A stretch of DNA of 46,266 nucleotides from Spirochaetales bacterium (GTDB taxonomy: Bacteria; Spirochaetota; Spirochaetia; Treponematales; UBA12059): contig JAFGJV010000022.1 in assembly GCA_016928955.1 (NCBI GenBank), positions 1 to 46,266 of the forward strand, written 5' to 3'. Made by a program: the position numbers and the translations under genes. The notes beneath the pieces are model-generated. The model was not told the DNA's origin and ran no database searches. It saw only the letters and a list, made by a program, of their open reading frames with translations. Every line of letters begins with the position of its first letter. Position 1 is the first letter of the stretch. Of this stretch, positions 23,624 to 46,266 are shown one piece after another.

Positions 23624-23629
23624 ATGCGC

Positions 23630-28654: not shown

Positions 28655-28688
28655 ATAATTAGTAAACGATAAATTCCGCGAGAAAAAT

Positions 28689-28717: not shown

Positions 28718-28894
28718 GACTCTCTGCGGCGTTACGTTTCTATTCCGCTCGGGAATACCAAGCCGTGCTCCGCGGTCCGGTTATTAATTCATAGCCCATA
28801 GATCTCGTATAGGAAGTCTTCCGCCGGGAGTTTCGTCGTCTCCGGAGGAACCGGGGCTTCTTCTACCCCGCACGCTTCCGAGATGGAGGATGGA

Positions 28895-31800
28895 ATGAAG
28901 TCCAAGGCGGCCAGGGAACCCATCGTCATAGCGGGTATTGGATGCGCGTTCCCGGGAGGGGCGGATTGTCCCGACGCGTTCTGGAAACTGCTCCTTGACG
29001 GCAGGGATACGGTGACCACCGTGCCGCCCAGCCGTTGGGACGCCGATGCCTTCTACCACCCGGACTGGACCGTGTACGGCAAGATACACAGCAAGTACGG
29101 GTCCTTCCTTTCGGACGAGCAGCTGGAAACCTTTGACCCCCTGTTCTTCGGAATTCCCCCGCTGGCCGCCCAGAAGATGGACGTGCAGCAGCGCTGGCTC
29201 CTGGAGGCGTCGTTCCGGGCGCTTGAGGACGCGGGCGTAGGGTTGGAAACCGTGGACGGCTCCAACTGCGGTGTCTACATAGGCGTATCCGCCAAGGAAT
29301 ACGGCGAGCTGGTCATGAGCGACCATGTCCGCGACGTCATAGACGGCAACAGCATAGTGGGCAACTCGGCCGCCATTTGCTCCAACCGCATATCGTACAT
29401 CTTCAACCTGAAGGGTCCCAGCATCACCATGGACACGGCCTGCTCGTCGTCCTTGGTCGCCCTGCACACGGCCTGCCAAGCTATCTGGAACGGGGATATA
29501 GACGCGGCCCTGGTGGGCGGCGTCAACGCCATATTGTCGCCTGAAGTGTCATTGGCCTTTTCCACCGGCGGCTACCTGTCGCCGGACGGGCGCTGCAAGG
29601 CCTTTGACCACAGGGCCAACGGCTATGTGCGCGCTGAGGGCGTGGGCGTGGTGTACCTTCTGCCGGCGTCCAAGGCGCGCGACGCGTACGCGTCCATATT
29701 GGGCACGGCCCTGACCCAGGACGGCTTTACCGTGGGTATCAGCCAGCCTGATCCCGAAGCCCAGGCTCGGGTCATCCGGAACGCGTGCGCGTCGGCCGGC
29801 GTGGATCCGGCCGAGCTGTCGTACGTGGAGGCGCACGGCACGGGCACCGCCGTGGGCGATGTAGTGGAAGCCCAGTCCATAGGCCGGGCGGTGGGGCAGG
29901 CGCGCGGAGACGCGGGGCCGATCCTTGTCGGTTCGGTAAAAACAAACATAGGCCACTGCGAGCCTGCCTCCGGCATGGCGGGCCTTGTCAAAGTGGCGCT
30001 CAGCCTGAAGGAAGGCGTCATTCCCGGCAACCTGCATTTCCAGAAACCCAACCCCGGTGTGGATTTTGACCAGCTCAATATAGAAGTGGCTGTGGGACAG
30101 AGAGCCTGGCCGAACGGCCGGCGGCTGGCCGGCGTCAATTCCTTTGGCTTTGGCGGCACCAACGCTCATGTGGTGCTCGGAGAGGCGCAGGATGTTCCGG
30201 CGCCCAAGAAAACCGCCGCGGCCGCCCCTCGGCCGCTGTTTACCCTGAGCGCCAGGTCCAAGAAGGCGCTCTCCGCTTCCATGCTGAGGTACGCCGACTG
30301 GCTGGACGAGCATCCCGACCTGAACATGAACGACGTATGCGCCACCCAGGCCTTGCACCGCTCGGCCTTTCCCTGGCGCTTTGCGTTAGGCGTGCGCGAC
30401 CGGGAAAGCCTGTCCGCACTGCTCAGGCAGGCGGCCACGGGCGACGCGCCCCAGGGCTCGGCGCTGGGACGGGCGGAAGATGCCAGACCGGGCGTGGCTT
30501 TTGTGTTCTCGGGCCAGGGCGGCCAGTGGTGGGGTATGGCCCGGGACCTGATGGACGGCAGTCCCTCCTTTATGGAAACGCTCCGGCTGTGCGCGATCAC
30601 GATACAGTCCTTCACGGGCAGGGATCTTGAAGCGGAGCTACGCAAAGACGAGGAAAGCTCGATAATCGGCACATCGTTCGGGCAACTGGCATTGCTGGCC
30701 GTGCAGATGGCCTCGGTGAGCCACTGGGCGTCCCTGGGCGTCAGGCCGGCAGCCGTGGTTGGCCACAGCATAGGCGAGGTGGCCGCGGCCTGGACTTCCG
30801 GCGTCATCGGGCTGGAAGACGCCATACGCATCGTGTACCAGCGCATGCTGGTTTTGGACGAGATATCCGGTTTTGGAACCATGTTGGCCGTTGGCCTGTC
30901 GGAGAAAGACGCCGAACGCTATCTGGCAGACTCCGGCCTGAGCTCGGAGATAGGCACGGTCAACGGGCCGTCCTTGGTCACCTTCTCAGGCGCCAGGGAC
31001 GAGCTGGAACGGGCGGCCGCCGATCTGGAAGCCAAGGGCGTGTACGCAAAATTCCTCAAGGTTACCGGCCCCTTCCACAGCCGCCACATAGAGCGCTACC
31101 GGGAACGAATCGTGGGGGAATTCGCCTATCTCAGGCCCGCATCCCCGACTGTACCCTACTATTCGAGCGTTAGCGGCTCGTTGCTGTCCGGTCCCATCTT
31201 TGACGCGGACTACACCTACCGCAACCTCAGACAGCGGGTGCGGTTCGCCCAGGCTATAGAGCGCATGATAGACGACGGCTGGACCAGCTTTGTGGAAATC
31301 GGGCCGCATCCCAGCCTGGTGCCCTACGTGGCCGAGACGGCTACGGCTAGGCGCCGGCCCTGCCAGGTGTTGCCGACCATGCGGCGCAAGGAAAACGACT
31401 GGGACGTATGCCTGGCCACGCTGGCCGCCCTCCATGTCCAGGGTTGTGACGTGGACATAGGCGCGCCCTGGAAGGACGGGACCTATGTCCGCCAGAGGCC
31501 GCCGGCCTATCCCTTCCAGAAGGAACGCTACTGGTTCGAGAAAGCCGCGTCCAGGGCGTCGCGCATGGGCCGCCGCGTCCATCCCCTGGTCGCGTCGCGC
31601 TCCGACCTGCCCGGCAGGGAGGGCACCCATGCCTGGAAGCTGATGCTGTCCAAGCGTGTGGTGCCGTGGATAGCCCAGCATGTGGTGCAGGGCGGCATCA
31701 TCTTCCCGGCCGCGGGTATATGCGAAACGGCCCTGGGCTGCGCCCAGGACGCCTTTGGCGAGCGCTTCGTCGCCCTGGAGGATCTCAGGTTCATGCAGGG

Positions 31801-34800
31801 CGTGTACCTTCCCAAGGGCGACGAGGAGGAGCCGGAGATCGTGCTGTCCGTGTCGGGCGACGACGGGTCCTTCAGCGTGGCGTCCCGGCCGGCTGACGCG
31901 TCCGGGGCCTGGACCACGCACTGCGCCGGCCGCATGACCCACCGGGGCCGGGCACCGGACCGCGACATACCCGATGTGGCCGTGGCGCGAGCGTCGTTCA
32001 CGGAGGCGGACCGGGACGATTTTGAGCCCATCTACCGCAAGATGGCGGAGAACGGCCTTGAGCTCGGTCCGTCGTTCCGCGCAATCAGGCGTATATGGAT
32101 ACGGGCAGGCGGGCAGTGGCTGGGCGAGGCTTACGGCGAGGTGGAGGCGGACGAGCGCGACGGCTTTGACCTGGACTCGTACAACATACACCCGGCCGTG
32201 CTGGACTCCTGCTGGCAGATTCTCATCCCGGTGATCGTGCGTCACACGGGTGACGACGACATGCTGTGCCTGCCCGTGTCCGTGGGCAGTTTCAGGTTGT
32301 TGCGGGCGCCTCGAGGGGTCCTCTCCTGTTACGGGCGCCTGCGCTCCACGGACGGCCGGTCCTTTGTGACCGACGTGTGGGTATACGACGCCGAGGGCCG
32401 GCCCTGCCTGGAAATCCTGGGCTTTACCGTGCGGCACATAGAAGGCACCGGCCATGACGCGGCCGCGCGCGTGGCCGCCATAAGCTACCGCCCCAGCTGG
32501 AACGACTCTCCCCTGGTGCTGGCCGAGGGCGCCGTGAAAACGCTGCCGTCGGACATGAGGCCGGGAGGAACCTGGCTGGTGTTCATGGACGCCGCGCAGT
32601 CGCTTGGCGGCGTGGTGGTCGGCCTTAGGGAACTCGGTGAACGCGTGGTGGTGGCGCTGCCGGGCGTTTCCTATGACCTGCGTGGCGACGAGGCGACTCT
32701 GGCGCGGCAAGACGCCGGGGATATGGCCCGGCTCGTGGCCGAAATGGGTCCCGGGAGCGTTCGCGGCCTGGTGTACGGCTGGAGCCTGGACCGCGCGACG
32801 GCCGCCGGACAGGCCTTTGGCGACGGGTCCGCGGCCGCCCTGGAGACGCTTGCCCTGCTCCGGCCGCTGTGCGCGCTTCCCCAGCCGCCGCGGACCTGGG
32901 TGCTGACGCGTCAGGCTTCAGACGCGGGCCCCGATCCCGATCCCGCCCTTGCCGGAGCTGTGGGCGTGGCCCGGGTGGCCATGCATGAGCATCCGGCTTT
33001 GGCGCTGACCCTGGTGGATATGGACTCGGATGGCGCTCCGCCCTTGGACGAATTCCTGCGCCGAGAGAACGACGAGGAAGTGGCCTGGCTGGGAGACAGG
33101 CGCGTGGCCCGCGTGATTGTCCACACGGACCCAGACCGGGAGCGCCTGGACGCCCTGAAGCCGCTGGACAAAAATACGGTCTTTGGCCTGGCTCTGGACA
33201 GGCAGTCCGGTTCCGATACGGCTGTCCTTCGGGCCGTCCAGGCTCCGGTCCCCGGACCCGGGGAGGTTGAAGTTCTGGTGTCGCATGTGGCACTGGACAC
33301 CAAAGGACGGCTGTCCGGCCCGGCGGATGCCTACCCGGCCCGGGCTTTTTCCGGAGTGGTCGGTAGGGTGGGGCCCGGCGTGGCGGGATTCTCGGAAGGC
33401 GACGCGGTGGCCGGTGTCCTGGCGGCCGCGCCAGCCAATAGGCTGCGTGTGGACGCGCGGTGCCTGCGCGTTTTGAAACCTGGCGCGGACCCGGCCCAGG
33501 CAGCGGCCGCTGAATGGAACGGGCTCGTGGCAGCCTCCGTGCGCGGCACGCTCGCGGGGCTTGCCGCTGATGCGTCCGTTGTGGTGGTGGCCAGCCCTTC
33601 GTCGCCCTGGCGTGAACTTGTGGCGGCCCTGGGCACCCGGCCCGTGTCAGTGGCTCCCGTGGGCGGCCTGGATTCGGCGGAGCTTGAGCGCGCTGGCGCC
33701 GTGGCCGTTCCGGAAGGCGCCGAACTGGGCGCGGATGCCGTGGTGTGCCTGGCGGCGGAAGCCAATCTGTACCTGGCGTCCCGATCCTTGCGCCACGGAG
33801 GCCTGATCGTGGTGGCCGACCGCGCCTGCCTGGACGCGGGGGGACAGGTGCCCGCGTCGGTATTGTCGCGCTGTTCGAGTGTGACCACGGTGGATGAAAC
33901 GGCACTGGATGGAAATCACGAGGCATTGCCGGGTCCGTTCCGGCTGTTCACGCTTGCCCAGGCTTCCGATGCCTTGTCCGCGCGCCGGGCGGGGCCCTGC
34001 GCCGTGCTTGACCTGGGCGCCACTGAAGGCGCTAGTTTGTCTCCGGCACGGAGTCTGGCCGAGCTGGTCAGGGCGGACGCCACGTACGTGGTTACGGGAG
34101 GCCTAAAAGGACTCGGCCTGGCCATCAGCGAATTCCTGTGCACAAGCGGCGCGCGTCACCTGGTGCTGGTCGGGCGGAGCGGCGCGGACAGCGACGAGGC
34201 CCGCGCCGGGCTGGTAAAACTGGAAGACGCGGGCGCGGTCGTGCGGGTGGTCAGGGGAGACGTCAGCGACCCGAGCGTTGCGGAATCCTTGTTCCGACAG
34301 GACGGATTCCCACCGGTGCGCGGCGTGGTGCACTGCGCCGCCGTGTTTGATGACGCCCTGCTGGCCGATATGGACGCGGAGCGCTTCCTTGGCGTATACG
34401 GCCCAAAGGCACGGGGTGCTTTCAACCTGCACAGGGCGGCCGGTCCCATGGATTTCTTCCTCTGTTTCAGCTCAGTGTCCGCCGCCTACGGCAATCCCTC
34501 GCAGGCCAATTACGCGGCCGCCAACGCCTATCTGGATTCCCTGTGCCTGAGTCGTCGTGTCCGCGGGCTTGGCGGCCTGGCTTTGGCCTGGGGCGTGATA
34601 GGCGGCGCAGGGTACGTGGCCCGGAACGGCAAGGTGGCCGACATGCTGGGCGCCCAGGGCTGGAAACCCCTGTCCTTGCGCGACATAGGGGAGACCCTGG
34701 ATGCCTACCTGCCGGCCGACCCGGGCTACCGCCTGGTCATGGACCTGGATTGGGCCAAGCTCGGGCAGATCAACCCAGCCGACCGGAGCAGCGCCCGCTT

Positions 34801-37800
34801 TGGCGCCCTGACAGGCGCAGGGTCGGGCCCGTCGGAATTGTCCGATAGCCTGGCCGACCGTCTGGCCACATTGGATCCCACGGAAGCCAAAGCTGTTCTT
34901 GAGGCCGAGTTGTCCGCCCAGGTGGCGCGCATAGCCGGCCTGGCCCTGGACGACGTGGATCCGGACGAGCCCATCACGGCGCTCGGGCTGGACTCCCTCA
35001 TGGTCAACCAGCTGCGCAACTGGATCATGGCGGCGCTCAAGACCCAGGTAACCATGATGAAGCTGATGATGGGGCCCAGCGTCAGGGCCCTGGCGGGTTC
35101 CCTGCTGGACGGCAGCTCGGACGCCGCTACCGAGGGCAATGAAACCAATCCCTTCTCCAAGCCCATACCGGCGGCTCCGGACGCGGACAGCTATCCGGTG
35201 ACGTCCAGCCAGCGCCGCGTGCTCCTGTTGTCGCACCTGGACCCGTCCAGCGTCAACTACAACATACCCGTGGCCGTGCGCATACGCGCGGACGTGGACC
35301 CCGAGCGGGCCCTGGCGGCCTTCCGTACCCTGGTGCAGTCCTACGAGACCCTCCGCACGTCCTTTGTGTTCGAGGGCGGCGAATTCCGCCAGCGCGTGCA
35401 CAGCCGTGTGGACATAGAGGCGGCCTACGACGAGTTTCCGGAAACGGAGGTGGATCTCCGCCTGGCCGCGTTCTTCAAGCCGTTTGACCTCGGCAAGGCT
35501 CCGCTCTGCCGGGCCCTGGTGGCCAAGCTGGCCGAACGCGACTACCTCCTGGTCATCGAGATGCACCATTCCATCATAGACGCCAATTCGGGCGGCATAC
35601 TTCTGGACGCCTTTTTCAGGATTTACTCGGGCGCGGAACCCGAGCCCGAGCGCGTCCGCTACCGCGACTACGCCGTGTGGGAGGCGGGCCTCCGCGCGGA
35701 CGGGGCCTACGCGGGAAGCGAGGCGTTCTGGCTGGACAGGCTGAAGGGTCCGCTGCCGTCCCTGGACTTGCCCACCGATTTCCCGCGGCCACGGCGGCAG
35801 AGCTTTGAGGGTGACGAGGTGCGCTTCAGGCTCGGTCCCGCCCGCGTGGGCCAGCTGAAGGACCTGGCCGCCAAGACGGGCGCCACCCTGTCCATGGTGC
35901 TCCTGGCCGCGTTCAAGACCCTCCTCCACCGCTACTCGGGCCAGGAGGACATGATCGTGGGCCTGCCGGCTTCAGCCAGGCGGCACGCCGACCTGGAGCG
36001 GCTCATGGGCATGCTGGTCAGCACCATACCCCTGCGGAGCGCGCCGGCGTCGCGCAAGCGCTTTGTGGACTACCTGACCGAGCTCAAGGGCATAGCCATA
36101 GAGTCATACGAGAACCAGGACTATCCCTTTGACGACCTCTTTGAGCGCCTGGTGGTGGACCGCGAGCTGAGCCGCAATCCCCTGTACGACGTGTCCTTCA
36201 CCTTCCAGGACGTGGACCTGTCCTTCTCCGCTCTGGCCGCCGACGGATCGGTGGATGCGTACCGCCTGCCCAGGCGGGCGGTGCGTTTTGACCTGGGCCT
36301 GGAGTGCTTTGAGCGCGACGAGGGCGTGGACGTGGCCCTGTGCTACGCAACCAGGCTGTTCCGTCCGGAAAGCGCCCGGCGCATGGCTTCCAGCCTTGAG
36401 CGCATCCTGGACGCCGTGTCGGAAGATCCCAAGCTGAAAATAGGCGAACTGCCCGTGCTCTCGGAAGCCGAACGGGCCATGCTGGCAAGCGGCATGGAAC
36501 GCCGCGCGGACATTCCGGACGGCTCGTGGTTCGGGCTGTTCGAGATGGCGGCCGCCGCACACGCGGACAAGCCGGCTCTGGTCGGAACCGCTGGCGTTGT
36601 CCTTTCGTACGGCGCCCTTCTGGACCGGGCCCTGAGGGTGGCCGGCGCCGTGCTCGGCGCAGGGGCAACACCGGGGCAGAGGGTGGCCGTGCTGGCCGAG
36701 CGCCATGAGGACACGGTGGCGGCCATCCTCGGGGTGCTGGCGGCCGGCTGTTCCTTTGTTCCCTTTGACCCGGCGTATCCGGACGCCCGCCTTGCGGACA
36801 TGGCCGGGGACGCGGGCATTCGTCTGTGCCTCGGCCGGGCGGCCTTGAAGGATAGGGCCAGCGCGGTCGGCCTGGGCTTTGTCGATTCCCAGGGAGGCGA
36901 TCGGGCCGCCACCGCCACGCCCAGTTCAGGCGGGGACGAGGCCTACGTCATCTTTACCTCCGGTTCCACAGGCCGGCCCAAGGGCATAGCCGTCAGCCAC
37001 CGGAGCCTGCTCAACTACTGCTCATGGCACAACCGCCACTACGGGCTGGGGCCGGGCGAGGTGTGCTCCAAGTACGCGTCGTTCTCCTTTGACGGCGGCC
37101 TCAAGGAATTCCTGCCGCCTCTCCTGGCGGGAGCCGCCGTGGCGGTTGTACCGGACGACCCGGACCTGCTCCTGGACACGGAAAACCTGGCGCCCTGGCT
37201 GAAAGAACGTTCGGTCACTTGCGCGTACTTCCCCACGCCGGTGGCCGAGGAATTCATGAAAGGCGACCATGACCTGCCGGCCCTGAAGGCCGTCATTGCC
37301 GGCGGCGACAGGCTGCACGGGTACCGGCCGCTGAGCTATGCCCTGTACAACCACTACGGACCGGCCGAGTGCACCATATCGTCCACGGTCCACAGGGTGG
37401 AGCGGGGCGGGCCGTCCGTGCCCATAGGCCGGCCGATAGACAACACGGCCGTCTATGTGCTGGACGGGGATTCCACCCTGGTCCCTCCCGGCGTTTACGG
37501 GGAGATATGCATAGCGGGAGCCGGCGTTGCCCTTGGGTACGTGGACGGCGACGACCGGGGCCGCTTCAGGCAGGATCCCTTCTATCCCGGCCGCCTCATG
37601 TACCGCACCGGAGACTACGGCCGCTGGTCGGGCGGCGGTGACCAGGTCCTGGAATTCGCCGGCCGCAGGGACGGCCAGGTCAAGGTGCGGGGGCACCGCG
37701 TGGAAACGGCCGACGTGGAAGCGGCCATGGGCGGACTGCAGGGCGCCGGCCGCGTGCGCGTGCTGGCCCTGGGCGACAATTTGGCCGGCTGTTGGGACGG

Positions 37801-39580
37801 CCTCCCGGCTGAGGCGGCCATGCGGGCCCACCTGTCCCGGTTCCTGCCCGCGTACATGGTCCCGACTATTCTGCGCCGGGTGGACTCCTTCCCGCTGACC
37901 GTGCACGGCAAGGTCGACGACGACGCCTTGAGGGCTGTCTGCGCCTCCCGGCCGGACGACGGCGCGCCGAGCGCCGAGTTGACCGAGGACGAGCGTCGCC
38001 TGGCTGATATTTGGGAAGGGGTGCTTGGCTCAAGGCCGCGCTCGCCAGATGACGGGTTCTTTGAGCTGGGCGGCAACTCGGTGAGCGCCATGCGCCTGAT
38101 CCACGCCATCCGCGGGGAACTGGGCGTGGACCTGCCCATGCGCGACGTGTTCTCCGCCAACGACCTGGGAGAGATGGCCAGGGCCATAGCGTCCCGGGGC
38201 ACGGCATCCGGCGACGCGGTGCCTGCCGCTTCTCCCTCCGCCGACTATCCGGTGAGCCGGTCTCAGGAAGCCATTCTGTTGATGGGCGACGCCTATGGAG
38301 CGAGCGCCGCGTACAACGAGGCGGGCGCGGTGATAGTGCCCTATCGCGTCGACCCTGGCCGCCTGTCCGCCGCCCTCCGCGTCCTTCAGGACCGCCATGA
38401 CGCGCTTCGCATGTATTTCCGGAGAAACGGCGCCGAGTACCGGCAGATCCTGGCTGACGGCATGGAGCCGCCCGTGTTCGAACTGGGCGCGCTTGCCGGG
38501 CTTGATCCCGCCCAGGCCGCCAGCGCGGCGGTCAAACCCTTTGACCCGACTCGGGCGCCCTTGTACCGGGTGTCTCACGGTCGCCTGGACGGAGGCAAAA
38601 GCCTCCTGGTCTTCGATTTCCACCACGCCATCATGGACGGCGCGTCCATAGGTGTTTTTGCGTCCGAGCTTGGGGCCTTGCTGGATGGCCGGGACCTGCC
38701 CCCGGCGCCGGCGCGAACCTTCCGGGATTTCAGCTCTTGGTTCGCGTCCCGGGGCGACGTGGAGACGGACCGGGCCTGGTGGCTGACCACCTTCTCTCCG
38801 CTGGCCGGACCCTTCCTCCTGCCCGTGGACCGGCCCCGCTCTCCGGTACCCGATTACCGCTCGGCGGAGTACGCCATGGAGCTGGACGCGGACACGGTGG
38901 CCAGGGCGGCCGTCACGGCGGCCGCGGCCAAGGCCAGCCTCTTCTCGTACTTCCTGGCCTGCATGGCCGTTGTCCAGTCGCGGTACGCCGGCACGGCCAG
39001 CTGCGTCATCGGCACGGTGGACGAGGGGCGCGGTCGGCCCGAATCGGCCGGGGTCCTGGGACCCTTCATGCGCACCTTGCCCATACTCTGCGAGGTGGAC
39101 GGCCGGGCCGGTTTCCTGGACGTGCTGTCCGGCGTGGCCGCCAATCTGGCCAACGCTATTGACCACGACGGCTACGCCTACGAGCGCCTGGCCGAGGAAC
39201 TTGGCCTCAAGCGCGTGCCGGGAACGCATCCTTTGTTCCAGACCATTTTCGCGTGGCAGAACGGCGAGGAAGGCCGCTCCGTGGTCGAGGCCATGGGCCA
39301 CGACGCCGTGAGGGCCGACTCGGGGGCGGCCAAGTTCGAGATTCTGGTTGACGGGACGCCCACGGCGGATGGCCGGGCGGAGTTCAGGTTTGAGTACCGG
39401 GCTGCCGTGTACGACGAGTCGAGCATCAGGCGCCTGGCTGAGGATTTTGCATCGGTGTGCGCCCACGCCGCCCGCGAGCCGCGCTGTCCGGCGGCCGAGC
39501 TCGGGCTTGAGCCGGCCGCGCAGGGTGCCGGGGAGCTGACCGAGGGCGGCTTTGACTTCAACGGGGGAGCCGAGGCATGA
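28895..39580 (+). CDS. Hybrid type I PKS-NRPS: KS-AT-DH-ER0-KR-ACP-C-A-T-C
   Basis: KS DTACSSS/HGTGT/NIGH; AT GHSIG and GPFHS; DH HVVQGGIIFP and HPAVLD; ER remnant PGPGEVEV without a NADPH motif; KR TGGLKGLG/VFDD/YAAAN; ACP LGLDSL; C HHSIIDA; A FTSGSTGRPKG/YGPAE/YRTGD; T LGGNSV; terminal C HHAIMDG. ATG 28895 follows GGAGG (28883 is an alternative start). Confidence 0.96.
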   Translation: MKSKAAREPIVIAGIGCAFPGGADCPDAFWKLLLDGRDTVTTVPPSRWDADAFYHPDWTVYGKIHSKYGSFLSDEQLETFDPLFFGIPPLAAQKMDVQQRWLLEASFRALEDAGVGLETVDGSNCGVYIGVSAKEYGELVMSDHVRDVIDGNSIVGNSAAICSNRISYIFNLKGPSITMDTACSSSLVALHTACQAIWNGDIDAALVGGVNAILSPEVSLAFSTGGYLSPDGRCKAFDHRANGYVRAEGVGVVYLLPASKARDAYASILGTALTQDGFTVGISQPDPEAQARVIRNACASAGVDPAELSYVEAHGTGTAVGDVVEAQSIGRAVGQARGDAGPILVGSVKTNIGHCEPASGMAGLVKVALSLKEGVIPGNLHFQKPNPGVDFDQLNIEVAVGQRAWPNGRRLAGVNSFGFGGTNAHVVLGEAQDVPAPKKTAAAAPRPLFTLSARSKKALSASMLRYADWLDEHPDLNMNDVCATQALHRSAFPWRFALGVRDRESLSALLRQAATGDAPQGSALGRAEDARPGVAFVFSGQGGQWWGMARDLMDGSPSFMETLRLCAITIQSFTGRDLEAELRKDEESSIIGTSFGQLALLAVQMASVSHWASLGVRPAAVVGHSIGEVAAAWTSGVIGLEDAIRIVYQRMLVLDEISGFGTMLAVGLSEKDAERYLADSGLSSEIGTVNGPSLVTFSGARDELERAAADLEAKGVYAKFLKVTGPFHSRHIERYRERIVGEFAYLRPASPTVPYYSSVSGSLLSGPIFDADYTYRNLRQRVRFAQAIERMIDDGWTSFVEIGPHPSLVPYVAETATARRRPCQVLPTMRRKENDWDVCLATLAALHVQGCDVDIGAPWKDGTYVRQRPPAYPFQKERYWFEKAASRASRMGRRVHPLVASRSDLPGREGTHAWKLMLSKRVVPWIAQHVVQGGIIFPAAGICETALGCAQDAFGERFVALEDLRFMQGVYLPKGDEEEPEIVLSVSGDDGSFSVASRPADASGAWTTHCAGRMTHRGRAPDRDIPDVAVARASFTEADRDDFEPIYRKMAENGLELGPSFRAIRRIWIRAGGQWLGEAYGEVEADERDGFDLDSYNIHPAVLDSCWQILIPVIVRHTGDDDMLCLPVSVGSFRLLRAPRGVLSCYGRLRSTDGRSFVTDVWVYDAEGRPCLEILGFTVRHIEGTGHDAAARVAAISYRPSWNDSPLVLAEGAVKTLPSDMRPGGTWLVFMDAAQSLGGVVVGLRELGERVVVALPGVSYDLRGDEATLARQDAGDMARLVAEMGPGSVRGLVYGWSLDRATAAGQAFGDGSAAALETLALLRPLCALPQPPRTWVLTRQASDAGPDPDPALAGAVGVARVAMHEHPALALTLVDMDSDGAPPLDEFLRRENDEEVAWLGDRRVARVIVHTDPDRERLDALKPLDKNTVFGLALDRQSGSDTAVLRAVQAPVPGPGEVEVLVSHVALDTKGRLSGPADAYPARAFSGVVGRVGPGVAGFSEGDAVAGVLAAAPANRLRVDARCLRVLKPGADPAQAAAAEWNGLVAASVRGTLAGLAADASVVVVASPSSPWRELVAALGTRPVSVAPVGGLDSAELERAGAVAVPEGAELGADAVVCLAAEANLYLASRSLRHGGLIVVADRACLDAGGQVPASVLSRCSSVTTVDETALDGNHEALPGPFRLFTLAQASDALSARRAGPCAVLDLGATEGASLSPARSLAELVRADATYVVTGGLKGLGLAISEFLCTSGARHLVLVGRSGADSDEARAGLVKLEDAGAVVRVVRGDVSDPSVAESLFRQDGFPPVRGVVHCAAVFDDALLADMDAERFLGVYGPKARGAFNLHRAAGPMDFFLCFSSVSAAYGNPSQANYAAANAYLDSLCLSRRVRGLGGLALAWGVIGGAGYVARNGKVADMLGAQGWKPLSLRDIGETLDAYLPADPGYRLVMDLDWAKLGQINPADRSSARFGALTGAGSGPSELSDSLADRLATLDPTEAKAVLEAELSAQVARIAGLALDDVDPDEPITALGLDSLMVNQLRNWIMAALKTQVTMMKLMMGPSVRALAGSLLDGSSDAATEGNETNPFSKPIPAAPDADSYPVTSSQRRVLLLSHLDPSSVNYNIPVAVRIRADVDPERALAAFRTLVQSYETLRTSFVFEGGEFRQRVHSRVDIEAAYDEFPETEVDLRLAAFFKPFDLGKAPLCRALVAKLAERDYLLVIEMHHSIIDANSGGILLDAFFRIYSGAEPEPERVRYRDYAVWEAGLRADGAYAGSEAFWLDRLKGPLPSLDLPTDFPRPRRQSFEGDEVRFRLGPARVGQLKDLAAKTGATLSMVLLAAFKTLLHRYSGQEDMIVGLPASARRHADLERLMGMLVSTIPLRSAPASRKRFVDYLTELKGIAIESYENQDYPFDDLFERLVVDRELSRNPLYDVSFTFQDVDLSFSALAADGSVDAYRLPRRAVRFDLGLECFERDEGVDVALCYATRLFRPESARRMASSLERILDAVSEDPKLKIGELPVLSEAERAMLASGMERRADIPDGSWFGLFEMAAAAHADKPALVGTAGVVLSYGALLDRALRVAGAVLGAGATPGQRVAVLAERHEDTVAAILGVLAAGCSFVPFDPAYPDARLADMAGDAGIRLCLGRAALKDRASAVGLGFVDSQGGDRAATATPSSGGDEAYVIFTSGSTGRPKGIAVSHRSLLNYCSWHNRHYGLGPGEVCSKYASFSFDGGLKEFLPPLLAGAAVAVVPDDPDLLLDTENLAPWLKERSVTCAYFPTPVAEEFMKGDHDLPALKAVIAGGDRLHGYRPLSYALYNHYGPAECTISSTVHRVERGGPSVPIGRPIDNTAVYVLDGDSTLVPPGVYGEICIAGAGVALGYVDGDDRGRFRQDPFYPGRLMYRTGDYGRWSGGGDQVLEFAGRRDGQVKVRGHRVETADVEAAMGGLQGAGRVRVLALGDNLAGCWDGLPAEAAMRAHLSRFLPAYMVPTILRRVDSFPLTVHGKVDDDALRAVCASRPDDGAPSAELTEDERRLADIWEGVLGSRPRSPDDGFFELGGNSVSAMRLIHAIRGELGVDLPMRDVFSANDLGEMARAIASRGTASGDAVPAASPSADYPVSRSQEAILLMGDAYGASAAYNEAGAVIVPYRVDPGRLSAALRVLQDRHDALRMYFRRNGAEYRQILADGMEPPVFELGALAGLDPAQAASAAVKPFDPTRAPLYRVSHGRLDGGKSLLVFDFHHAIMDGASIGVFASELGALLDGRDLPPAPARTFRDFSSWFASRGDVETDRAWWLTTFSPLAGPFLLPVDRPRSPVPDYRSAEYAMELDADTVARAAVTAAAAKASLFSYFLACMAVVQSRYAGTASCVIGTVDEGRGRPESAGVLGPFMRTLPILCEVDGRAGFLDVLSGVAANLANAIDHDGYAYERLAEELGLKRVPGTHPLFQTIFAWQNGEEGRSVVEAMGHDAVRADSGAAKFEILVDGTPTADGRAEFRFEYRAAVYDESSIRRLAEDFASVCAHAAREPRCPAAELGLEPAAQGAGELTEGGFDFNGGAEA

Positions 39581-42500
39581 ACGCGTTCGAGCGGGAGCTA
39601 TTCAGGGAAAACGAGCGGTATGCCGGAGCGCGGGAATTTTTCCGCCCCATGCTTGAAGCAGGCGCGGGCGGGCCGTGGTCCACCGTTTCCGAGACGCGGG
39701 TGACCAGGACGGACGCGCTGTCCGACGAAGCGGCGGGCCTGGCCCTGCGCGTCGCCCGGGGAGACGACGTGTCCCTCCTGGCCTTGTTCGCGCAATCGCT
39801 GGGCCTGATCCTGGGCCGCTGCTTCATGGTGGACGGCCTGACAGCCTGGCTGGATCTTGAGGAGCGGAGCGGCGGCCGCCCCTCCCTGCCGCTGCGCTTT
39901 CCCGTACGCTCGGGCGGCTTTGCCAAAAACCTGGTGGAAGCGCGCGGCCTGATCGTCAGGGCAGGCGCTTTTGGGGATTTTGACGCGGCTGCCTTGCTTG
40001 ACGGAGCGGCATCCTTCCGCGCGCTCGAGTTGTGCGTGGGGAAGGCGCGACAGGCCCCAGACCGGGCCCCGGCCGACGTGTCGGCCGCCCTGCTACGGAC
40101 AGACAAGGGCCTTGCGCTGGAGTTGTCGTATAAGCCGTCCTGCCTGCCGGACGCCCTGGCAACGGCCATGGCGGGCTACCTGTCCAAGCTGTGGGCAAAC
40201 GCGTTGGCCGATCCGCAAGCGTCGCCGGAGGAACCGGATTTTATTCCTGCCGCCGAAACCGAGCGCATCCTGGACCAGTGGTCGCGTAGGGGGCGGACGG
40301 ACGACTGGTCGTATCCGGAAAAAAACCTGGCCACCCTGTTCGAGGAAACGGCGCGCGCCCACGCGGACAGGGTGGCTATCAAGGCCGACGGCCGCTCCCT
40401 AACCTACGCCGAGCTTGAACGGGCCAGCGCCGTCCTGGCCACCCGGATCATCAAGGTGGCTGGAGGCCCGGGCAAGCGCATAGGCCTGTTGGCCGACCGC
40501 TCGGCCGGAGCCGTGGTCGCCCTGCTCGGCGCGATCCGGGCGGGTTGCGCCTACGTGCCGCTGGATCCCGACCACCCGGCGGAACGGACGGTCTTCATGG
40601 CCAAGGACGCGTCCCTGTCGGCCATACTGCATCCGGGTTCCCTGGCCGAAGCGGCCGGGAACATAGCGGCGGCGTCTGGCGTCCCTGCGCTGTTGGACTA
40701 TGACGGTCCCGAGCGGCACGAACGCGCTGAGCTGCCCGTTCCTTCGCTGGACGACGCGGCATACGTCATATACACGTCCGGAACCACGGGAGCGCCCAAG
40801 GGCTGCGAGCTCAGCCACCGGAACGTGGCGCGGCTCATGAAGGCTCGCGCTCTGCCTTTTTCCTTCACCGAGCGGGACGTGTGGTCCCTTTTCCATTCGT
40901 TCTGTTTTGATTTCTCCGTGTGGGAAATCTGGGGAGCCCTGCTGTACGGCGGCACGCTGGCCGTGGCCGGGGATGCCGAGCGGGCCGACCCGTCGGTTTT
41001 CCGGTCTTTCCTGGAGGCGGAGGGCGTGACCGTGCTCAGCCAGACTCCCACGGCTTTCTACCGCCTGGCCGAGGCGTGCCGCGACAAGCCGCTTCCCTCC
41101 GTGCGCGAGGTGGTGTTCGGCGGCGAGGCGCTCAAGTCCCGTCTGCTGGCTGCCTGGTCGGCCTCCCACCCCGGGGCGCGCCTGGTCAACATGTACGGCA
41201 TCACCGAAACCACGGTCCATGTCACCTGGAAGGTCCTTGGGCCCGACGACCTGGCCCGCGGTTCGCGTTCCGTGGGCACGGCCCTGCCCACGCTCAGGGT
41301 ATTTCTCCTGGATGCCGCCGGCAGGGTTCAGCCAGCGGGGGCCGTTGGCGAGATATGCGTGGAGGGGCTAGGTTTGGCAACGGGCTATATCAACCAGCCT
41401 GAGCTGACGGCAACCCGCTTTGCCCCCAATCCCCACACCGGCGAGCGCCTGTACCGCTCGGGCGACCTGGGCCGCTGGACGGTGGACGGTGAGATCGAGT
41501 ATCTGGGACGCCGCGATTCCCAGGTGAAAATCCGGGGGCACCGGATAGAGCGCGGCGAGGTAGAGTCAGCGGCGGCCAGGCACGACGCCGTGAGTTCGGC
41601 GGCATGCGCCGCGCGGACTGACAAGGACGGCGACAGCTATCTGGCTCTGTGGTACGCAGCGTCGCGGCCCGTGTCCTTTTCGGAAATGCGCGCGCACCTG
41701 GCCGAGCTCCTGCCCGCGTACATGGTGCCCTCGGCCATGGTCCAGGTAGACGCCCTGCCCTGCACGGCCAACGGCAAGGTGGACCTTTCAGCCCTGCCCG
41801 ACCCCGAGCGGCGTTCTGGTAGCCACGGCAGGAAGCCCGACGGCGAGCTGGAGGAAGCCATGGCGCGCGCCTGGGGAGAGGTGCTTGGCGTCGAGTCGCC
41901 CGGTATGGACGACAACTTCTTCGAGTGCGGCGGCGACTCCATCAAGGCCATGCAGATAGCCGCCCGCCTGAACGACCACGGCCTGTCCCTGGACGTAAAG
42001 GAGCTGTTCCGGCATCCAACGCTGGACGAGCTCAAACCTTACGTCAGGCCCCTGTCTAGGATACCTCCGCAGGAAGCGGCGTCCGGGCCTTGTCCGTTGT
42101 CGCCCATTCAGGAGCGCTTTTTCAGCCTGGGCGAGGCGGGCATGGATGTAGACAACCAGGCCATGGTCCTCCGCGCGCCCGGCGGCTTTGACCGTGAGGC
42201 CTTGGCATCAGCCCTGAACGCCGTTTTTGAGCGTCATGACGCCTTCCGTCTCCGTTTCACAAAGGGCGACGGCGGCGTATGGTCTTCCGCCTATGCCGAC
42301 GCCCGGGCGCCGGCCATCCAGGAATTCCCCAAGGCTGATGACGCCGGGCAGGCTCTGCTGGACGCCGGCCGGGAGCTGAACCGGCCCTTTGACCTGGGGT
42401 CGGGACCCTTGCTCAGGTTCGGGCTTGTGCCCGCGGAGGACGGCGACTACCTGGCCATCGTTGCCCACCACCTGGTCATGGACGGCGTGTCCTGGCGCAT

Positions 42501-43452
42501 CGTGCTTGAGGACCTGGGCGTGGCCTACGCCCAGGCCGTCAAGGGCACGGCAGCATCCTTCCCGCTCCGGAGCGACAGCTACGCCGCCTGGGCGGGATGG
42601 CTGAGAGGGCCAGGCGCAGAGCAGGCCGGGGACACCGCGGACGCATGGCTGGCCATCGGGCAGGACCGGGATCCGTGGCCGGCTGCGGATGGTGCCGCCG
42701 GCTCGCGCTCGGACGCCCGCCTGAAGGCCTTCTCCCTGGACCCTGCACGGACCGAGGAGCTTCTGACCCGCGCATGGAAAGCCTATTACGCGGAGCCGCG
42801 GGACCTGATCCTGGCGGCCCTGGAACTGTCCCTGCCCCCTGAGGCCGGTGAGGGTTCGCTGGTCATAGACATGGAGGGGCACGGCCGCGACGTTCCCTCC
42901 GACCAGCTGGACGTGTCGCGCACGGTCGGCTGGTTCACGTCCATCTATCCGGTGCGCCTGCCGCGCTCCGGCGGCCAGCCAGGGGTGGCGGTCCGAGAGG
43001 CCAAAGAAGCACAGAGGGGCCTGCCTCCGCATCAAAGCTGGGGCGTGCTCAAATATATACTGGGCCATCCGGCCGCCCAAAAGCGCAGGTCCGGCATACT
43101 CTTCAATTTCCACGGGGAGGTGGACGGTTCCGGGCGTTCGGGGGATTTTGAGGTTGCCGACCTGCCCCTGGGGGCCCTCCAGTCGCCGGAACGCCCGCTG
43201 GACTATCCCCTGGAACTCAACCTGATCGTGCGCTCGGGACGCCTGCACTGCGTGCTCAAGTACGATTCAACGCGCCTGGAACGGGCCGTGGTGGACAATA
43301 TGTCGGCCGCCTTCCGCAAAAACCTGGACGCCGTAATCGGGCACTGCCTGTCCCTGCCCGAGGCCGTGCACACGCCCAGCGATTTTGGCCTGTCAGGCGG
43401 CGTGGATAGCGACGACCTGGCCGTGCTTGCCAAGGTGGCGGCGGACCTGTGA
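39577..43452 (+). CDS. NRPS: degenerate half-C, A (Thr-type), T, E
   Basis: A YTSGTTGAPKG, FDFSVWEI, NMYGITETTVH (code DFWSVGMVH read by eye); T GGDSI; E HHLVMDGVSW, EGHGR, RTVGWFT; terminal TPSDF COM motif; ATGA overlap. Confidence 0.95.
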   Translation: MNAFERELFRENERYAGAREFFRPMLEAGAGGPWSTVSETRVTRTDALSDEAAGLALRVARGDDVSLLALFAQSLGLILGRCFMVDGLTAWLDLEERSGGRPSLPLRFPVRSGGFAKNLVEARGLIVRAGAFGDFDAAALLDGAASFRALELCVGKARQAPDRAPADVSAALLRTDKGLALELSYKPSCLPDALATAMAGYLSKLWANALADPQASPEEPDFIPAAETERILDQWSRRGRTDDWSYPEKNLATLFEETARAHADRVAIKADGRSLTYAELERASAVLATRIIKVAGGPGKRIGLLADRSAGAVVALLGAIRAGCAYVPLDPDHPAERTVFMAKDASLSAILHPGSLAEAAGNIAAASGVPALLDYDGPERHERAELPVPSLDDAAYVIYTSGTTGAPKGCELSHRNVARLMKARALPFSFTERDVWSLFHSFCFDFSVWEIWGALLYGGTLAVAGDAERADPSVFRSFLEAEGVTVLSQTPTAFYRLAEACRDKPLPSVREVVFGGEALKSRLLAAWSASHPGARLVNMYGITETTVHVTWKVLGPDDLARGSRSVGTALPTLRVFLLDAAGRVQPAGAVGEICVEGLGLATGYINQPELTATRFAPNPHTGERLYRSGDLGRWTVDGEIEYLGRRDSQVKIRGHRIERGEVESAAARHDAVSSAACAARTDKDGDSYLALWYAASRPVSFSEMRAHLAELLPAYMVPSAMVQVDALPCTANGKVDLSALPDPERRSGSHGRKPDGELEEAMARAWGEVLGVESPGMDDNFFECGGDSIKAMQIAARLNDHGLSLDVKELFRHPTLDELKPYVRPLSRIPPQEAASGPCPLSPIQERFFSLGEAGMDVDNQAMVLRAPGGFDREALASALNAVFERHDAFRLRFTKGDGGVWSSAYADARAPAIQEFPKADDAGQALLDAGRELNRPFDLGSGPLLRFGLVPAEDGDYLAIVAHHLVMDGVSWRIVLEDLGVAYAQAVKGTAASFPLRSDSYAAWAGWLRGPGAEQAGDTADAWLAIGQDRDPWPAADGAAGSRSDARLKAFSLDPARTEELLTRAWKAYYAEPRDLILAALELSLPPEAGEGSLVIDMEGHGRDVPSDQLDVSRTVGWFTSIYPVRLPRSGGQPGVAVREAKEAQRGLPPHQSWGVLKYILGHPAAQKRRSGILFNFHGEVDGSGRSGDFEVADLPLGALQSPERPLDYPLELNLIVRSGRLHCVLKYDSTRLERAVVDNMSAAFRKNLDAVIGHCLSLPEAVHTPSDFGLSGGVDSDDLAVLAKVAADL

Positions 43453-43477
43453 TGGACCATACAAAGGACATTGCGCC

Positions 43478-46266
43478 ATGAAGGAATCCGCGGTTCTGGA
43501 CGCGTATCCGCTCAGTCCCCTGCAGGAGGGCATGCTCTTCCACTACCTGGCGGAAGGACGCGGCGACCTGTACGTGGAACAAAGCTGCCTGCAGGTGGAC
43601 GGCAACCTGGACGAGGACCTTCTGGCCCGGGCCATAGGCCAGACCTGCGCCCGCCATGACTGCCTGCATGCCATTTTCCCGCACGAGGGACTCAAGCGCC
43701 CCCTGCAGGTGCTCGTGAAGGCGCGACCGTTCTCCTTTGAGGCCAGGCGTGACATCAGCCGCATGAGCCAGGCCGAGCGCGGCGCCTTGCTGGCGGGCTA
43801 CCTGGAGAGCGACCGCGCCAGGGGCTTTGATCTTGCTTCAGGGCCTCTCCTGCGCGTGGCAACTTTCAGGGAAGGCCCTGGCCGCGTCACCCTGGTGTGG
43901 ACCTTCCATCACATCATCATGGACGGCTGGTCCCTGGGCGTGTTCCTTGGCGACCTGTTTTCCGTCTACGGTTCCCTGGCGTCCGGGAGCCCCCTGCCCA
44001 GGCCTCCGGCCTTCCGGTATCGCTCGTACATAGAGTGGCTTGCCGCGCGCGACCAGGCCGCGGACAAGGAGTTCTGGGCGGCGCGGCTCGGGGACCTGCC
44101 CGACGGCTCTTATTTGAAACCCTGGGGCGGAACCCCAGAACGCGCCGGCCGCCTGGGCAAGGCCGAGGCCGCTGTTGGCCAGGCGGACTATGACGCCCTG
44201 TGCGCCCTGGCCGCGTCATGGAACGTAACGCCGGGCCACCTGTGCCAGGCCGCATGGGCCCTGGTGCTCGGAAGGTATTCCGGCTTCCAGGACGTGTGCT
44301 TTGGCGTTGTCGTGGCAGGCAGGCCGGCAAGCCTCCCGGGCGCGGAAACGGCCGTTGGCTTGTTCATCAACACCGTGGCCCGCAGGCTGGCCTGGTCCGA
44401 CGCCGAGGGCATGCGCCATCTGGCCGAACGCGCCCGCGACTCCGCCGCCGAGGAGGCGGCGCACGAAAATTCGTCGTTATCCTCGGTTCAGGAAGCCGCC
44501 GGACGGTCGTCGCTCTTTGACACGCTGTTCATATACGAGAATTACCCTGGCGAGCGGCGCTACGGCGATTGCGTGGTGCGCCAGCTGGATAGCTACGAAC
44601 GCACCAACTATCCGGCCGCCCTGGTCCTGGTTCCCGGAAGCGGGCTCAAGCTGATCCTCAAGTATGACCAGGGCTTCTATGACCAGCGTTTTTCCCAGGC
44701 GGTGTTGGACGCCTACGCGTCGTTCCTGCGCAGGCTGGTAGCCGCTGGGGACGCTCCCGCGGATTCGTTCCGCCTGCCTGTTCCGGCCAGGCCGGATTCC
44801 GCCGGGGTTGGCGACGACGAATGGTCGGCCACGGTGCTGGATCCTATCCAGACGAGCGTGGATCGGGTTCCGGACGCCATTGCCGCGTCCGACCCGTCAG
44901 GCAGCCTGAGCTACAGGTCGTTGTGGGACGCGGCCGGACGCGCGGCCGCCAGGCTCCGCGTGGCTGGCGTAGGCCCGGGCAACGTGGTCGGCGTGTCGCT
45001 CGGGCACGGCACGGACGCCCTGGCCTGCGTGCTCGGCGTGCTCCGGTCCGGGGCCGCCTACCTGCCGCTCGATCCGGGCCTTCCGTCCGCCAGGGTCGGC
45101 TACATCCTCCGAGATTCGGGCGCGTCCTGCCTGGTTGCCAGCGGCGGCCTGGCCGCGGCCGACTGGGGCGTTTCCCTGTTGTCGCCAGAAGTCCTGCTTG
45201 CCCCCGGTGCCGCGCCGGAAGCGCCGGAGACAAGCCCGGGCGCGGACGATCCGGCCTACGTCATCTATACCTCCGGCTCCACGGGCGAGCCAAAGGGCGT
45301 GGAAATCAGCCACCGTAATCTGGCGTCGTATCTAGCATGCGCGGCCCGTGAGTACGCGGATGGCAGTCCGGTGTCCATGCCCTTCATCACGAGCATATCG
45401 TTCGACCTCACGGTCACGTCCATGTTCCTGCCCCTGGCCACGGGCGGGGCTGTCATAAGCCCGGACGGAAACGACGTGGGCGAGAAACTGGTCCGCGCGT
45501 TGGGGAATCCGGACATCAACGTCATCAAGCTCACGCCTGCCCATTTGCGTCTGCTGGCGGGCATGGCTCGCGCGACGCCCGCGCGCCGGCGGCTGTTCAT
45601 AGTAGGCGGCGAGGCCCTGTCCGTGGACGCCTGCCGCGGCCTGATTTCGGCCCTTGGCCCGGATACCGGCATTGTCAACGAGTACGGCCCAACAGAGGCC
45701 ACCGTGGGCTGCATAGTCCATCGCTTTGATCCTGAGCGCGACAAGGGCGCCTGGGTGCCCATCGGGCGGCCGCTGCCGAACGCGCTGGTCCGGGTGGTGG
45801 ACGACCAGGGTCGGATCCTGCCCCCGGGAGCTGTGGGCGAGCTCGAGCTGGGCGGCTCAGGTCTTGCGCGGGGCTACCGCGGAAAACCCGAACTGAGCGC
45901 GGAGCGCTTTGTTGAGCGCGACGGCCGGCGCTGGTACCGCTCCGGCGACTACGGGCGCCTGGGTCCGGACGGGCTGGTCGAGTACCTGGGCCGGCGCGAC
46001 GGGCAGGTGAAGATACGCGGCCACCGGGTGGAGCCGGCCGAGCTTGAGCGCGCGCTCGGGGAGTGTCCCGGGGTGGCCGAGGCGGCGGTCAGCGTGCGCC
46101 GGGACGCGGGCGGAGAACCCTACCTGAGCGCCTTTGTGTCGCCCGCCGGGCTGGACGCGGTGGCCGTGCTTGCCTGGCTCCGGGGTCGCCTGCCTGGGTA
46201 CCTGGTGCCGGCGCGCCTTACGGTGCTGGAGCGCCTGCCGGTGAACCGCAACGGCAAGGTGGACGT
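43478..46266 (+). CDS. NRPS (3'-truncated by the window): C(DCL)-A (Asn-type)...
   Basis: Not in the ORF track (no stop in window). My translation gives MKESAVLDAYPLSPLQEGMLFH, HHIIMDGWS, YTSGSTGEPKG, FDLTVT, VIKLTP, NEYGPTEATVG (code DLTKIGEVG), YRSGD and NGKVD at the window end, all in one frame; AAGGA RBS. Confidence 0.93.
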   Translation, partial: MKESAVLDAYPLSPLQEGMLFHYLAEGRGDLYVEQSCLQVDGNLDEDLLARAIGQTCARHDCLHAIFPHEGLKRPLQVLVKARPFSFEARRDISRMSQAERGALLAGYLESDRARGFDLASGPLLRVATFREGPGRVTLVWTFHHIIMDGWSLGVFLGDLFSVYGSLASGSPLPRPPAFRYRSYIEWLAARDQAADKEFWAARLGDLPDGSYLKPWGGTPERAGRLGKAEAAVGQADYDALCALAASWNVTPGHLCQAAWALVLGRYSGFQDVCFGVVVAGRPASLPGAETAVGLFINTVARRLAWSDAEGMRHLAERARDSAAEEAAHENSSLSSVQEAAGRSSLFDTLFIYENYPGERRYGDCVVRQLDSYERTNYPAALVLVPGSGLKLILKYDQGFYDQRFSQAVLDAYASFLRRLVAAGDAPADSFRLPVPARPDSAGVGDDEWSATVLDPIQTSVDRVPDAIAASDPSGSLSYRSLWDAAGRAAARLRVAGVGPGNVVGVSLGHGTDALACVLGVLRSGAAYLPLDPGLPSARVGYILRDSGASCLVASGGLAAADWGVSLLSPEVLLAPGAAPEAPETSPGADDPAYVIYTSGSTGEPKGVEISHRNLASYLACAAREYADGSPVSMPFITSISFDLTVTSMFLPLATGGAVISPDGNDVGEKLVRALGNPDINVIKLTPAHLRLLAGMARATPARRRLFIVGGEALSVDACRGLISALGPDTGIVNEYGPTEATVGCIVHRFDPERDKGAWVPIGRPLPNALVRVVDDQGRILPPGAVGELELGGSGLARGYRGKPELSAERFVERDGRRWYRSGDYGRLGPDGLVEYLGRRDGQVKIRGHRVEPAELERALGECPGVAEAAVSVRRDAGGEPYLSAFVSPAGLDAVAVLAWLRGRLPGYLVPARLTVLERLPVNRNGKVD

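Follow-up and report, generated by a model that had tools for sequence, protein, structure and literature searches.

Organization of the megasynthase locus

The window analyzed here is the entire contig JAFGJV010000022.1 (C34; 46,266 nucleotides, nt) of a Spirochaetales bacterium, whose metagenome-assembled genome (MAG) of 2.87 Mb consists of 59 contigs and is 99.5% complete and 0.35% contaminated. Its right-hand part, from position 28883 to the contig end, carries three intact open reading frames (ORFs) on one strand, encoding megasynthases of 3565, 1291 and at least 930 residues, and the Pfam domains of all three genes were detected far above the cut-offs. These genes form the head of a hybrid polyketide synthase (PKS) and non-ribosomal peptide synthetase (NRPS) island, which is located between the flagellar genes flgF and flgG. 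The island probably directs the synthesis of a peptide of five or more residues that is N-acylated, likely with a polyenoyl chain, and is predicted from the domain sequences to be released reductively as an aldehyde or alcohol. A first-pass annotation, made from the letters of the window alone, had already described three adjacent megasynthase genes with the domain order given below, including an inactive enoylreductase and a half condensation domain, and Pfam, hhalign and motif analysis agree with this description. In the following, G000 refers to the genome itself and C34, C11 and C5 to its contigs, while other labels starting with P, G, L and X stand for proteins, genomes, loci and runs.

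Gene 1 (28883..39580, plus strand as all genes and domains of the assembly line on this contig) encodes a protein of 3565 amino acids (aa) with the organization KS-AT-DH-psiKR/ER0-KR-ACP-C-A1-T-C, as derived from the ORF and its Pfam matches. The ketosynthase with its linker (KS, 28916..30379) contains Cys184 and both His motifs, and the acyltransferase (AT, 30500..31450) shows the motifs GHSIGE and GPFHS, the latter being invariant in three orthologues. In the dehydratase (DH, 31580..32446), HxxxGxxxxP was found at His933 and DxxxQ at Asp1108. This domain is followed by the structural part of the ketoreductase together with a degenerate enoylreductase (ER; 32468..34087), the ketoreductase (KR, 34079..34600) with Tyr1877 and the acyl carrier protein (ACP, 34895..35107) with Ser2038 in LGLDSL. 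The NRPS part starts with the condensation domain C1 (35186..36484, HHSIID), the predicted acceptor of the ACP-bound polyketide acyl chain, and continues with the adenylation domain A1 (36539..37918, code DGKYIGHISK) and the thiolation domain T1 (37997..38188, Ser3066). A complete second condensation domain, C2 (38243..39514, HHAIMDG), identified by Pfam and by its motif, forms the C-terminus of the protein.

The interval between DH and KR comprises 530 aa, for which Pfam reported only a sub-threshold match to ADH_N (E 0.03). An hhalign comparison with a profile of ER domains from the PKS matches assigned aa 1445-1571 (nt 33215-33595) to the N-terminal lobe of an ER with a probability of 96% (E 1e-9). 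The alignment stops at the expected NADPH-binding motif, and the Rossmann half is unrecognisable. This region is also the least conserved part of gene 1, with 57% identity to the orthologue P0004 compared to 69-86% for nine other domains compared, and it is 32% identical to P0006. Scanning of other island genes gave no ER-family match. Judged by its sequence, the ER is inactive (ER0).

Orthologues of gene 1 are P0004 (73% identity over the full length), P0005 (97%, a partial copy) and P0006 (48%), and both P0004 and P0006 terminate in a C domain. P0006 contains an additional A-like domain (residues 2592-3058) between its C domain and its working A domain. This extra domain is devoid of the conserved Asp235 and Lys517, reads ARGHVSLLAT at the code positions and, on this basis, seems to be a dead A domain.

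Gene 2 (39577..43452, 1291 aa), whose start overlaps the stop of gene 1, has the layout half-C-A2-T-E. The half-C, corresponding to the acceptor-side C-terminal half of a C domain, was recognised by hhalign (39604..40248) and has no catalytic His motif. It precedes A2 (40339..41778, code DFWSVGMVHK), T2 (41863..42033, Ser788) and an epimerization domain (E, 42091..43383) with the motif HHLVMDGVSW (Pfam Condensation, 2.8e-59). L045, a contig from the Joint Genome Institute (JGI), carries a 1-nt deletion at 43107 in this E domain, reflecting either an assembly error or a frameshifted strain. Gene 3 (43478..46266) starts with ATG at 43478, with an upstream TTG at 43385 also in open frame, and is open at the contig end. 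It encodes C3 (43499..44776, HHIIMDGWS), whose best match is the other C domain that follows an E domain, on C11, and A3 (44849..46258, code DLTKIGEVGK).

A conserved split between a complete and a half condensation domain

At the junction between genes 1 and 2, the complete C2 domain is followed by a second, partial C domain on the next protein. In the hhalign comparison, the first ~224-250 aa of gene 2 correspond to columns 176-432 of 450 of the C-domain profile (probability 89%, E 2e-6). Pfam gave no match at E<=1 for the first 250 residues, and an HHxxxD motif is absent ahead of the E domain of gene 2. The AlphaFold 2 model of the half-C is of low confidence (mean pLDDT 51.9) and too weak to rely on alone; in a Foldseek search with this model, the best 40 of 51 matches (E<=0.001) were all condensation-fold structures, mostly NRPS C domains.

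The same half-C-A-T-E layout was found in P0124 (71% identity over the full length) and P0160 (45% over the full length), and P0124 shares one 18.9-kb contig with the gene 1 orthologue P0004. Altogether, the half-C is kept in three lineages, with 100, 53 and 35% identity in this part, and each time it is followed by A-T-E. A profile search of 1.84 billion representative proteins yielded 15 matches at E<=0.001, of which only that in P0160 is N-terminal; 11 others are confined to the last part of the query, beyond about residue 105, and are internal in long proteins, and three match elsewhere in the query. With the half-C-A-T-E layout present in P0124 and P0160 and the terminal C domain in P0004 and P0006, the C | half-C-A-T-E split is no private accident of this genome.

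This arrangement resembles the XUC exchange units of NRPS engineering, consisting of an acceptor half-C, A, T and the donor half of the next C domain, in that gene 2 likewise starts at about the donor/acceptor boundary. According to a section of PMC11546977, XUC units are recombined at this subdomain boundary of the C domain. In contrast to an XUC unit, gene 2 is natural, and the protein before it already ends in a complete C domain, resulting in one and a half C domains at the junction. We found no description of a C | half-C split in the literature searched. The half-C may be retained to support the A domain structurally or to provide it with a docking surface. It is of general interest that a natural protein boundary of the type C | half-C-A, which is conserved, falls where NRPS engineers recombine.

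Continuation of the assembly line on two further contigs

A tblastn search of the genome with all domains revealed NRPS sequence on only two other contigs, C11 and C5, consistent with the earlier view that the window holds the start of the pathway. C11 (4196 nt) is open at both ends and contains the end of a gene with A4-T-E (A4 code DVTNIALIYK), followed by a new gene, of which a C domain and the very beginning of an A domain are present. C5 begins with T-R, the R domain being thioester reductase-like (C5:2-1483; Pfam NAD_binding_4, 3e-39, 135 bits, above the cut-off), which shows the motifs GATGWVG and YxxxK. No end overlaps of at least 15 nt were found between C34, C11 and C5.

The end of the window coincides with a repeat. 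Positions 45785..46266 (plus strand) represent the first 482 nt of a ~650-nt intra-cluster repeat comprising the end of an A domain, a linker and the start of a T domain. Contigs of runs X3, X4 and X9 all end at 45782-45787, and a second contig, ~95.5% identical and of roughly double depth, covers 45753-46266. A 2164-nt contig of X3 lies on 45753-46266 of the window and on C5:3-129, with 41 letters in between (39-nt gap), and keeps the reading frame into the T-R part, while a 650-nt contig of X4 at ~1.75x depth spans exactly 45785 to C5:129. The X3 contig continues for 1482 unlike letters past C5:129. The assembly thus broke at the contig end because the ~650-nt repeat is present at least twice. 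One copy lies in module 3, and the ~1.5 kb that follow it would accommodate the remainder of T3 and a C domain. The other copy stands directly ahead of T-R on C5. The smallest model that accommodates every piece would be C-A1-T-C | halfC-A2-T-E | C-A3-T-C-A4-T-E | C-A5-T-R, with a minimum of five NRPS modules.

A search of JGI metagenomes with gene 3 kept 80 loci, of which only L045 is close (99.3%) and lies inside the window. Similarly, when the T-R fragment was used to look for longer proteins, none of the 35 matches was an orthologue, the nearest full-length T-R proteins being 31-33% identical. The best equivalog matches of the C5 fragment are the NCBIfams of MxcG (myxochelin, NF038078; E 1.5e-38) and AusA (aureusimine, NF047350; E 5e-25), which have the same T-R end with the Rossmann motif and YxxxK. 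With 132 bits against a cut-off of 2300, the fragment is no member of these families, and only the release chemistry is common to them. By sequence, the R domain is expected to work like a thioester reductase, and it is not filed in TIGR01746.

Downstream of T-R, C5 encodes, in this order, a DUF3108-like exported protein, a weakly matching Omp85-like protein, two FtsX permeases, a LolA-like protein, a barrel-like protein (a protein-atlas lead only), a DrrA-like ATPase with its membrane partner, a GT1 glycosyltransferase of the macrolide type (TIGR01426, 2e-33, below the cut-off), a type II thioesterase, a LolD/DarD-like ATPase and a radical SAM enzyme. An Sfp-type phosphopantetheinyl transferase (PPTase; C5:12991-13728, minus strand) is encoded on the strand opposite to these genes. 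The PPTase, type II thioesterase and exporter genes are intact. The release domain, PPTase and transporters, which the first-pass annotation had proposed to look for downstream, were thus recovered on C5.

Substrate specificity and predicted product

To read the ten-residue codes of the A domains, we aligned them with MAFFT, using the core motifs as anchors. The A1 code is the same in P0004 and the A2 code in P0124. A survey of 2051 bacterial A domains has, in the parts relevant here, DFWSVGMVHK among the Thr/Dhb-activating domains and DLTKIGEVGK in its Glu/Gln-Asp/Asn section (PMC12283262). The codes DFWSVGMVH and DLTKIGEVG had been read exactly in the earlier annotation, and their likeness to Thr- and Asn-activating domains is borne out by these entries. 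Based on the exact code matches, A2 is predicted to activate Thr and A3 to activate Asn. For A1, a PDB sequence search gave LgrA as the best match, which is uninformative on specificity, and the comparison with PsoA (PDB 9x2c) gave only a generic A-domain match (128 bits). Glu and Asp codes feature Lys at position 239 and His at position 322, and our weak guess is that A1 takes an acidic residue.

An E domain follows the A2 module and likewise the A4 module. The C domains located after these E domains are each other's best match (31%, E 2e-47) and both contain HHxxxDGWS. Their N-terminal and HHxxxDGWS motifs presumably fit the D-specific (DCL) subtype, in line with the proposed succession of an E domain and a C domain that together would install a D-residue. 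An N-acyl-D-Asn prodrug motif was also considered as a candidate and rejected, as the Asn module is the third one and has no E domain after it in the minimal model.

Based on this domain order, the lone PKS module, having no loading module and a dead ER, would iterate and pass a conjugated enoyl or polyenoyl chain to C1. The chain would then be extended by A1, by A2 with Thr and subsequent epimerization, by A3 with Asn, by A4 with a second epimerization, and by a fifth module. C2 of gene 1 would act in trans on the Thr loaded by gene 2, with the half-C as docking or structural platform, and the R domain would free the chain reductively. The predicted product is a likely polyenoyl Xaa-D-Thr-Asn-D-Xaa-Xaa aldehyde or alcohol. 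Additionally, this product may be glycosylated by the glycosyltransferase, and it may be exported or delivered to the outer membrane by the Lol/MacB-like and DrrAB-like sets.

The original work on the myxochromide synthetase is reportedly that of Wenzel et al. in 2005. The description of this system in a section of PMC6180311 offers the closest likeness by organization: in MchA-MchB-MchC, whose subunits include KS, AT, DH, ER, KR and carrier domains, a single PKS module feeds a multimodular NRPS to give a lipopeptide, and MchA is described there as an iterative type I module making a polyunsaturated chain. Methyl-terminated polyene acyl chains are called rare outside the myxochromide family in a passage of PMC10204066. 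The myxochromide system differs in having a separate PKS protein and thioesterase (TE) release, whereas the PKS of the spirochaete is fused to the first NRPS module, the line ends in an R domain and other residues are incorporated. MchA was not among the 120 gene 1 matches listed. A second likeness is found in fungal-type PKS-NRPS enzymes and bacterial polycyclic tetramate macrolactam synthases, in which a KS-AT-DH-(inactive ER)-KR-ACP-C-A-T series resides on one polypeptide, begins with the KS and lacks a loader. Whereas these enzymes add a single amino acid and use R/DKC or TE release, the line of the island continues on further proteins with at least four additional NRPS modules. The lone KS-AT-DH-ER0-KR-ACP module, the MchA-like arrangement and the island's want of a loader or acyl-activating enzyme favour iteration. 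By this analogy, an iterative module with a polyenoyl tail is the most likely reading, with a chance slightly better than even.

Several observations weigh against the prediction as a whole. At least 3.4 kb of the assembly line are unassembled (T3-C4, the start of A4 and most of A5), the number of modules is a minimum, and the contig order C34-C11-C5 is itself inferred. The X3 repeat contig keeps its double depth over the 1482 further letters, and more than two copies of the repeat are possible. Regarding release, the R domain scores 182.3 bits against the TIGR01746 cut-off of 213.35. The codes of A1 and A4 were found neither in the literature searched nor in the supplement text of PMC12283262, the tables of which may be images, and the assembly yielded no MbtH-like gene. 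Contigs matching the island come from a run filed as metatranscriptome as well, yet this does not show transcription. Finally, the nearest named PKS matches are modular PKSs of myxobacteria and actinomycetes with 32-43% identity, and iteration is unreadable from sequence.

The last point bears on a possible but clearly less probable alternative, namely that the PKS module is non-iterative. In this case, a fatty acyl primer from primary metabolism would undergo one malonate extension, reduction and dehydration, giving a 2-enoyl tail and no polyene. The best named relatives being modular cis-AT PKSs fits this explanation, and so does the set KS-AT-DH-KR-ACP, which amounts to one normal reducing module; the number of cycles is not measurable from sequence. 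However, the island contains no loading module, FAAL, acyl-CoA ligase or free-standing ACP, and the sole extra AMP-binding gene (on C32) lies outside it. Furthermore, the N-terminal KS retains its catalytic Cys, and in bacteria, a lone module whose ER goes unused has its precedent in the iterative MchA, as far as described in that section of PMC6180311.

Beyond the iterative synthesis of a polyenoyl peptide, one could envisage an envelope-bound, glycosylated polyene lipopeptide as a spirochaete counterpart of the outer-membrane pigments of the aryl polyene or flexirubin type. Its own Lol-like set (two FtsX, LolD-like ATPase, LolA-like carrier and barrel-like proteins) would carry it to the outer membrane, and activation of the synthetase would be wired to expression of the flagellar rod operon via the PPTase at flgF. 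We regard this scenario as a long shot.

Evidence for a probably functional assembly line

The half-C and the dead ER could also be read as scars of a decaying relic, in which the line is interrupted and no product is made. Besides these two degenerate domains, the unassembled parts of the line are compatible with decay, and the 1-nt deletion at 43107 in one JGI contig is a further point that speaks against an active line. On the other hand, the window shows 17.4 kb of open frames with all catalytic motifs, and the layout including the half-C is kept in orthologues at 71% and 45% identity. The independent JGI contig L045 is 99.3% identical over 41401-43754, and 14 of its 16 substitutions are synonymous; with 14 synonymous versus two non-synonymous changes, the genes look to be under purifying selection. 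Contigs of four public runs show no indel within the genes, and the PPTase, the type II thioesterase and the exporters are intact. Decay is thus a poor explanation, to which we give only a slim chance.

The island is inserted between flgF and flgG of a spirochaete

On its left side, the island borders on flgG (27520..28314, minus strand), a native gene identified by its Pfam FlgE/F/G domains. In all four relatives fetched, the gene beside flgG is a homologue (72-83% identity) of C5:13735-14583 (minus strand), i.e. of flgF (TIGR02490, 2.8e-51). An flgF-like gene also directly precedes flgG in 5/5 further loci, which, together with the four relatives, represent six different genomes in all. In 4/5 of these loci, a rod-binding gene follows flgG, with aminopeptidase P beyond. 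The flgF-flgG spacer measures 13 nt in the relative G002; in its place, G000 carries a cluster of at least 35.8 kb (17.9 kb on C34, 4.2 kb on C11 and 13.7 kb on C5). Moreover, in runs X4 and X5, each from a different outside study, single contigs extend from flgG across the initial 800 nt of the PKS gene. The flgF/flgG neighbourhood in the relatives and these bridging contigs show that C34 is not chimeric, that the window contains the true start of the cluster and that the cluster is an acquired island. Both cluster borders are defined. The PPTase gene begins 6 nt past the flgF stop, where relatives have flgG, and is probably co-transcribed with flgF, while the island has separated flgG from the promoter of flgF. 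Also of general interest is that 35.8 kb of cluster or more occupy a flagellar operon spacer that measures 13 nt in a relative.

The host is a spirochaete. The genome contains three FlaA (PF04620) genes, whereas none of 14 control genomes gave a match. FlgG, with a match in 23 of the 25 genomes searched (G000 included), shows 86-95% identity within the same family and 66-84% in other families of the order, and the non-cluster genes follow the clade. The partial, 97% identical copy of gene 1, P0005, carries the NCBI label 'Spirochaetales bacterium'. No 16S ribosomal RNA gene is present in the assembly. FlaA, FlgG kinship and synteny together confirm the spirochaetal host suspected from the window alone. 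The megasynthase would be non-spirochaetal if the contig were a chimera with its junction at ~28.5 kb or had been binned wrongly. This reading could draw on the guanine-cytosine (GC) content of the island (0.654-0.677 versus 0.635 for the genome) and on C11 and C5 being tied to C34 by inference only, but is extremely unlikely given the bridging contigs from two studies, the genes flanking the island on C34 and C5 that are direct neighbours in six relatives, and the 97% identical partial orthologue filed under Spirochaetales.

The divergent intergenic region between flgG and gene 1 (28315..28882, 54% GC) places the start of gene 1 568 nt from flgG, and nothing precedes the KS. A candidate promoter had been proposed for this region. 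Here, a perfect TTGACA at 28689 is followed 17 nt further on only by a weak TAGCGT, and a scan of 28200-29000 for the sigma-70 consensus returned 0 sites versus 0.4 expected, so that this proposal is unsupported. The same intergenic region contains a hairpin-rich segment of 141 nt (28516-28656) with three inverted repeats. In the contigs of 4/4 public runs, this segment is replaced by the same 28 other letters; it possibly represents a mobile or regulatory element of small size that inserted in this strain only. Run X9, an RNA library, has no cover at ~28195-28466, where the DNA runs have cover; we draw no inference from this.

Rarity and relatives of the island

We compared the island with an even set of 400 genomes of the phylum plus its own genome, using E<=1e-20 for C domains and E<=1e-60 for type I KS-AT. 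A C domain was found in 27/401 genomes (22/336 of high quality; 21/152 genera) and a type I KS-AT in 16/401, the best being 43% identical and none belonging to the same order within the sample. These counts agree with the earlier remark that PKS-NRPS clusters are uncommon in spirochaetes. The nearest PKS of the phylum sample, a 2841-aa open frame with 43% identity to gene 1 in KS-AT, occurs in two genomes of another family (G238:C3:218900-221512 and G228:C4:89258-91870). Among 40 closer relatives, strong NRPS module matches were restricted to G003 (37%) and G029 (32%). The former (same family; G003:C42:8751-20275) and the latter (same order; C90 and C171) have their own multimodular NRPS, 32-37% identical to gene 2, at other loci.

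In a set of 5.8 billion proteins, only P0004, P0005 and P0006 are close to gene 1 among the 120 matches listed, and named proteins reach at most 43% identity over a quarter of its length. Searching contigs of other genomes with gene 1, its own genome being left out, gave 20 loci with 30-39% identity, mostly in alphaproteobacterial MAGs. The impression that this is not a recognised, characterised pathway was thereby strengthened, as no close characterised relative was found in these protein and genome searches. The flgG-PKS stretch or part of it occurs in 20 entries of 12 studies. Four public runs from four studies contain long pieces at 95-99+% identity and are labelled as wastewater, digester or sludge metagenomes.

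To our knowledge, no product is known from such a cluster in Spirochaetota. On sequence grounds, we consider this a genuine, apparently functional and uncharacterised PKS-NRPS island of a familiar kind in a spirochaete. It overturns no current view, and its value lies in being a lead for natural-product discovery in anaerobes. With defined borders, its own PPTase and exporters, the island is complete enough to try.

Other genes of the window

The statement that only flagellar genes lie upstream of the island applies to two genes, flgG and the adjoining rod-binding (FlgJ-like) gene on the minus strand. Farther upstream, the genes are non-flagellar and encode aminopeptidase P, a methyltransferase, a MerR/TipAS protein and a transporter. 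The MerR-family regulator (23609-24406, plus strand) contains a TipAS antibiotic-recognition domain (2.8e-32) and belongs to the native flank, 4.5 kb from the island. Near the left end of the window, a chemotaxis set (MCP, CheW and CheA; 355-4918) and an ExbB/ExbD pair (5042-6093) represent ordinary genes.

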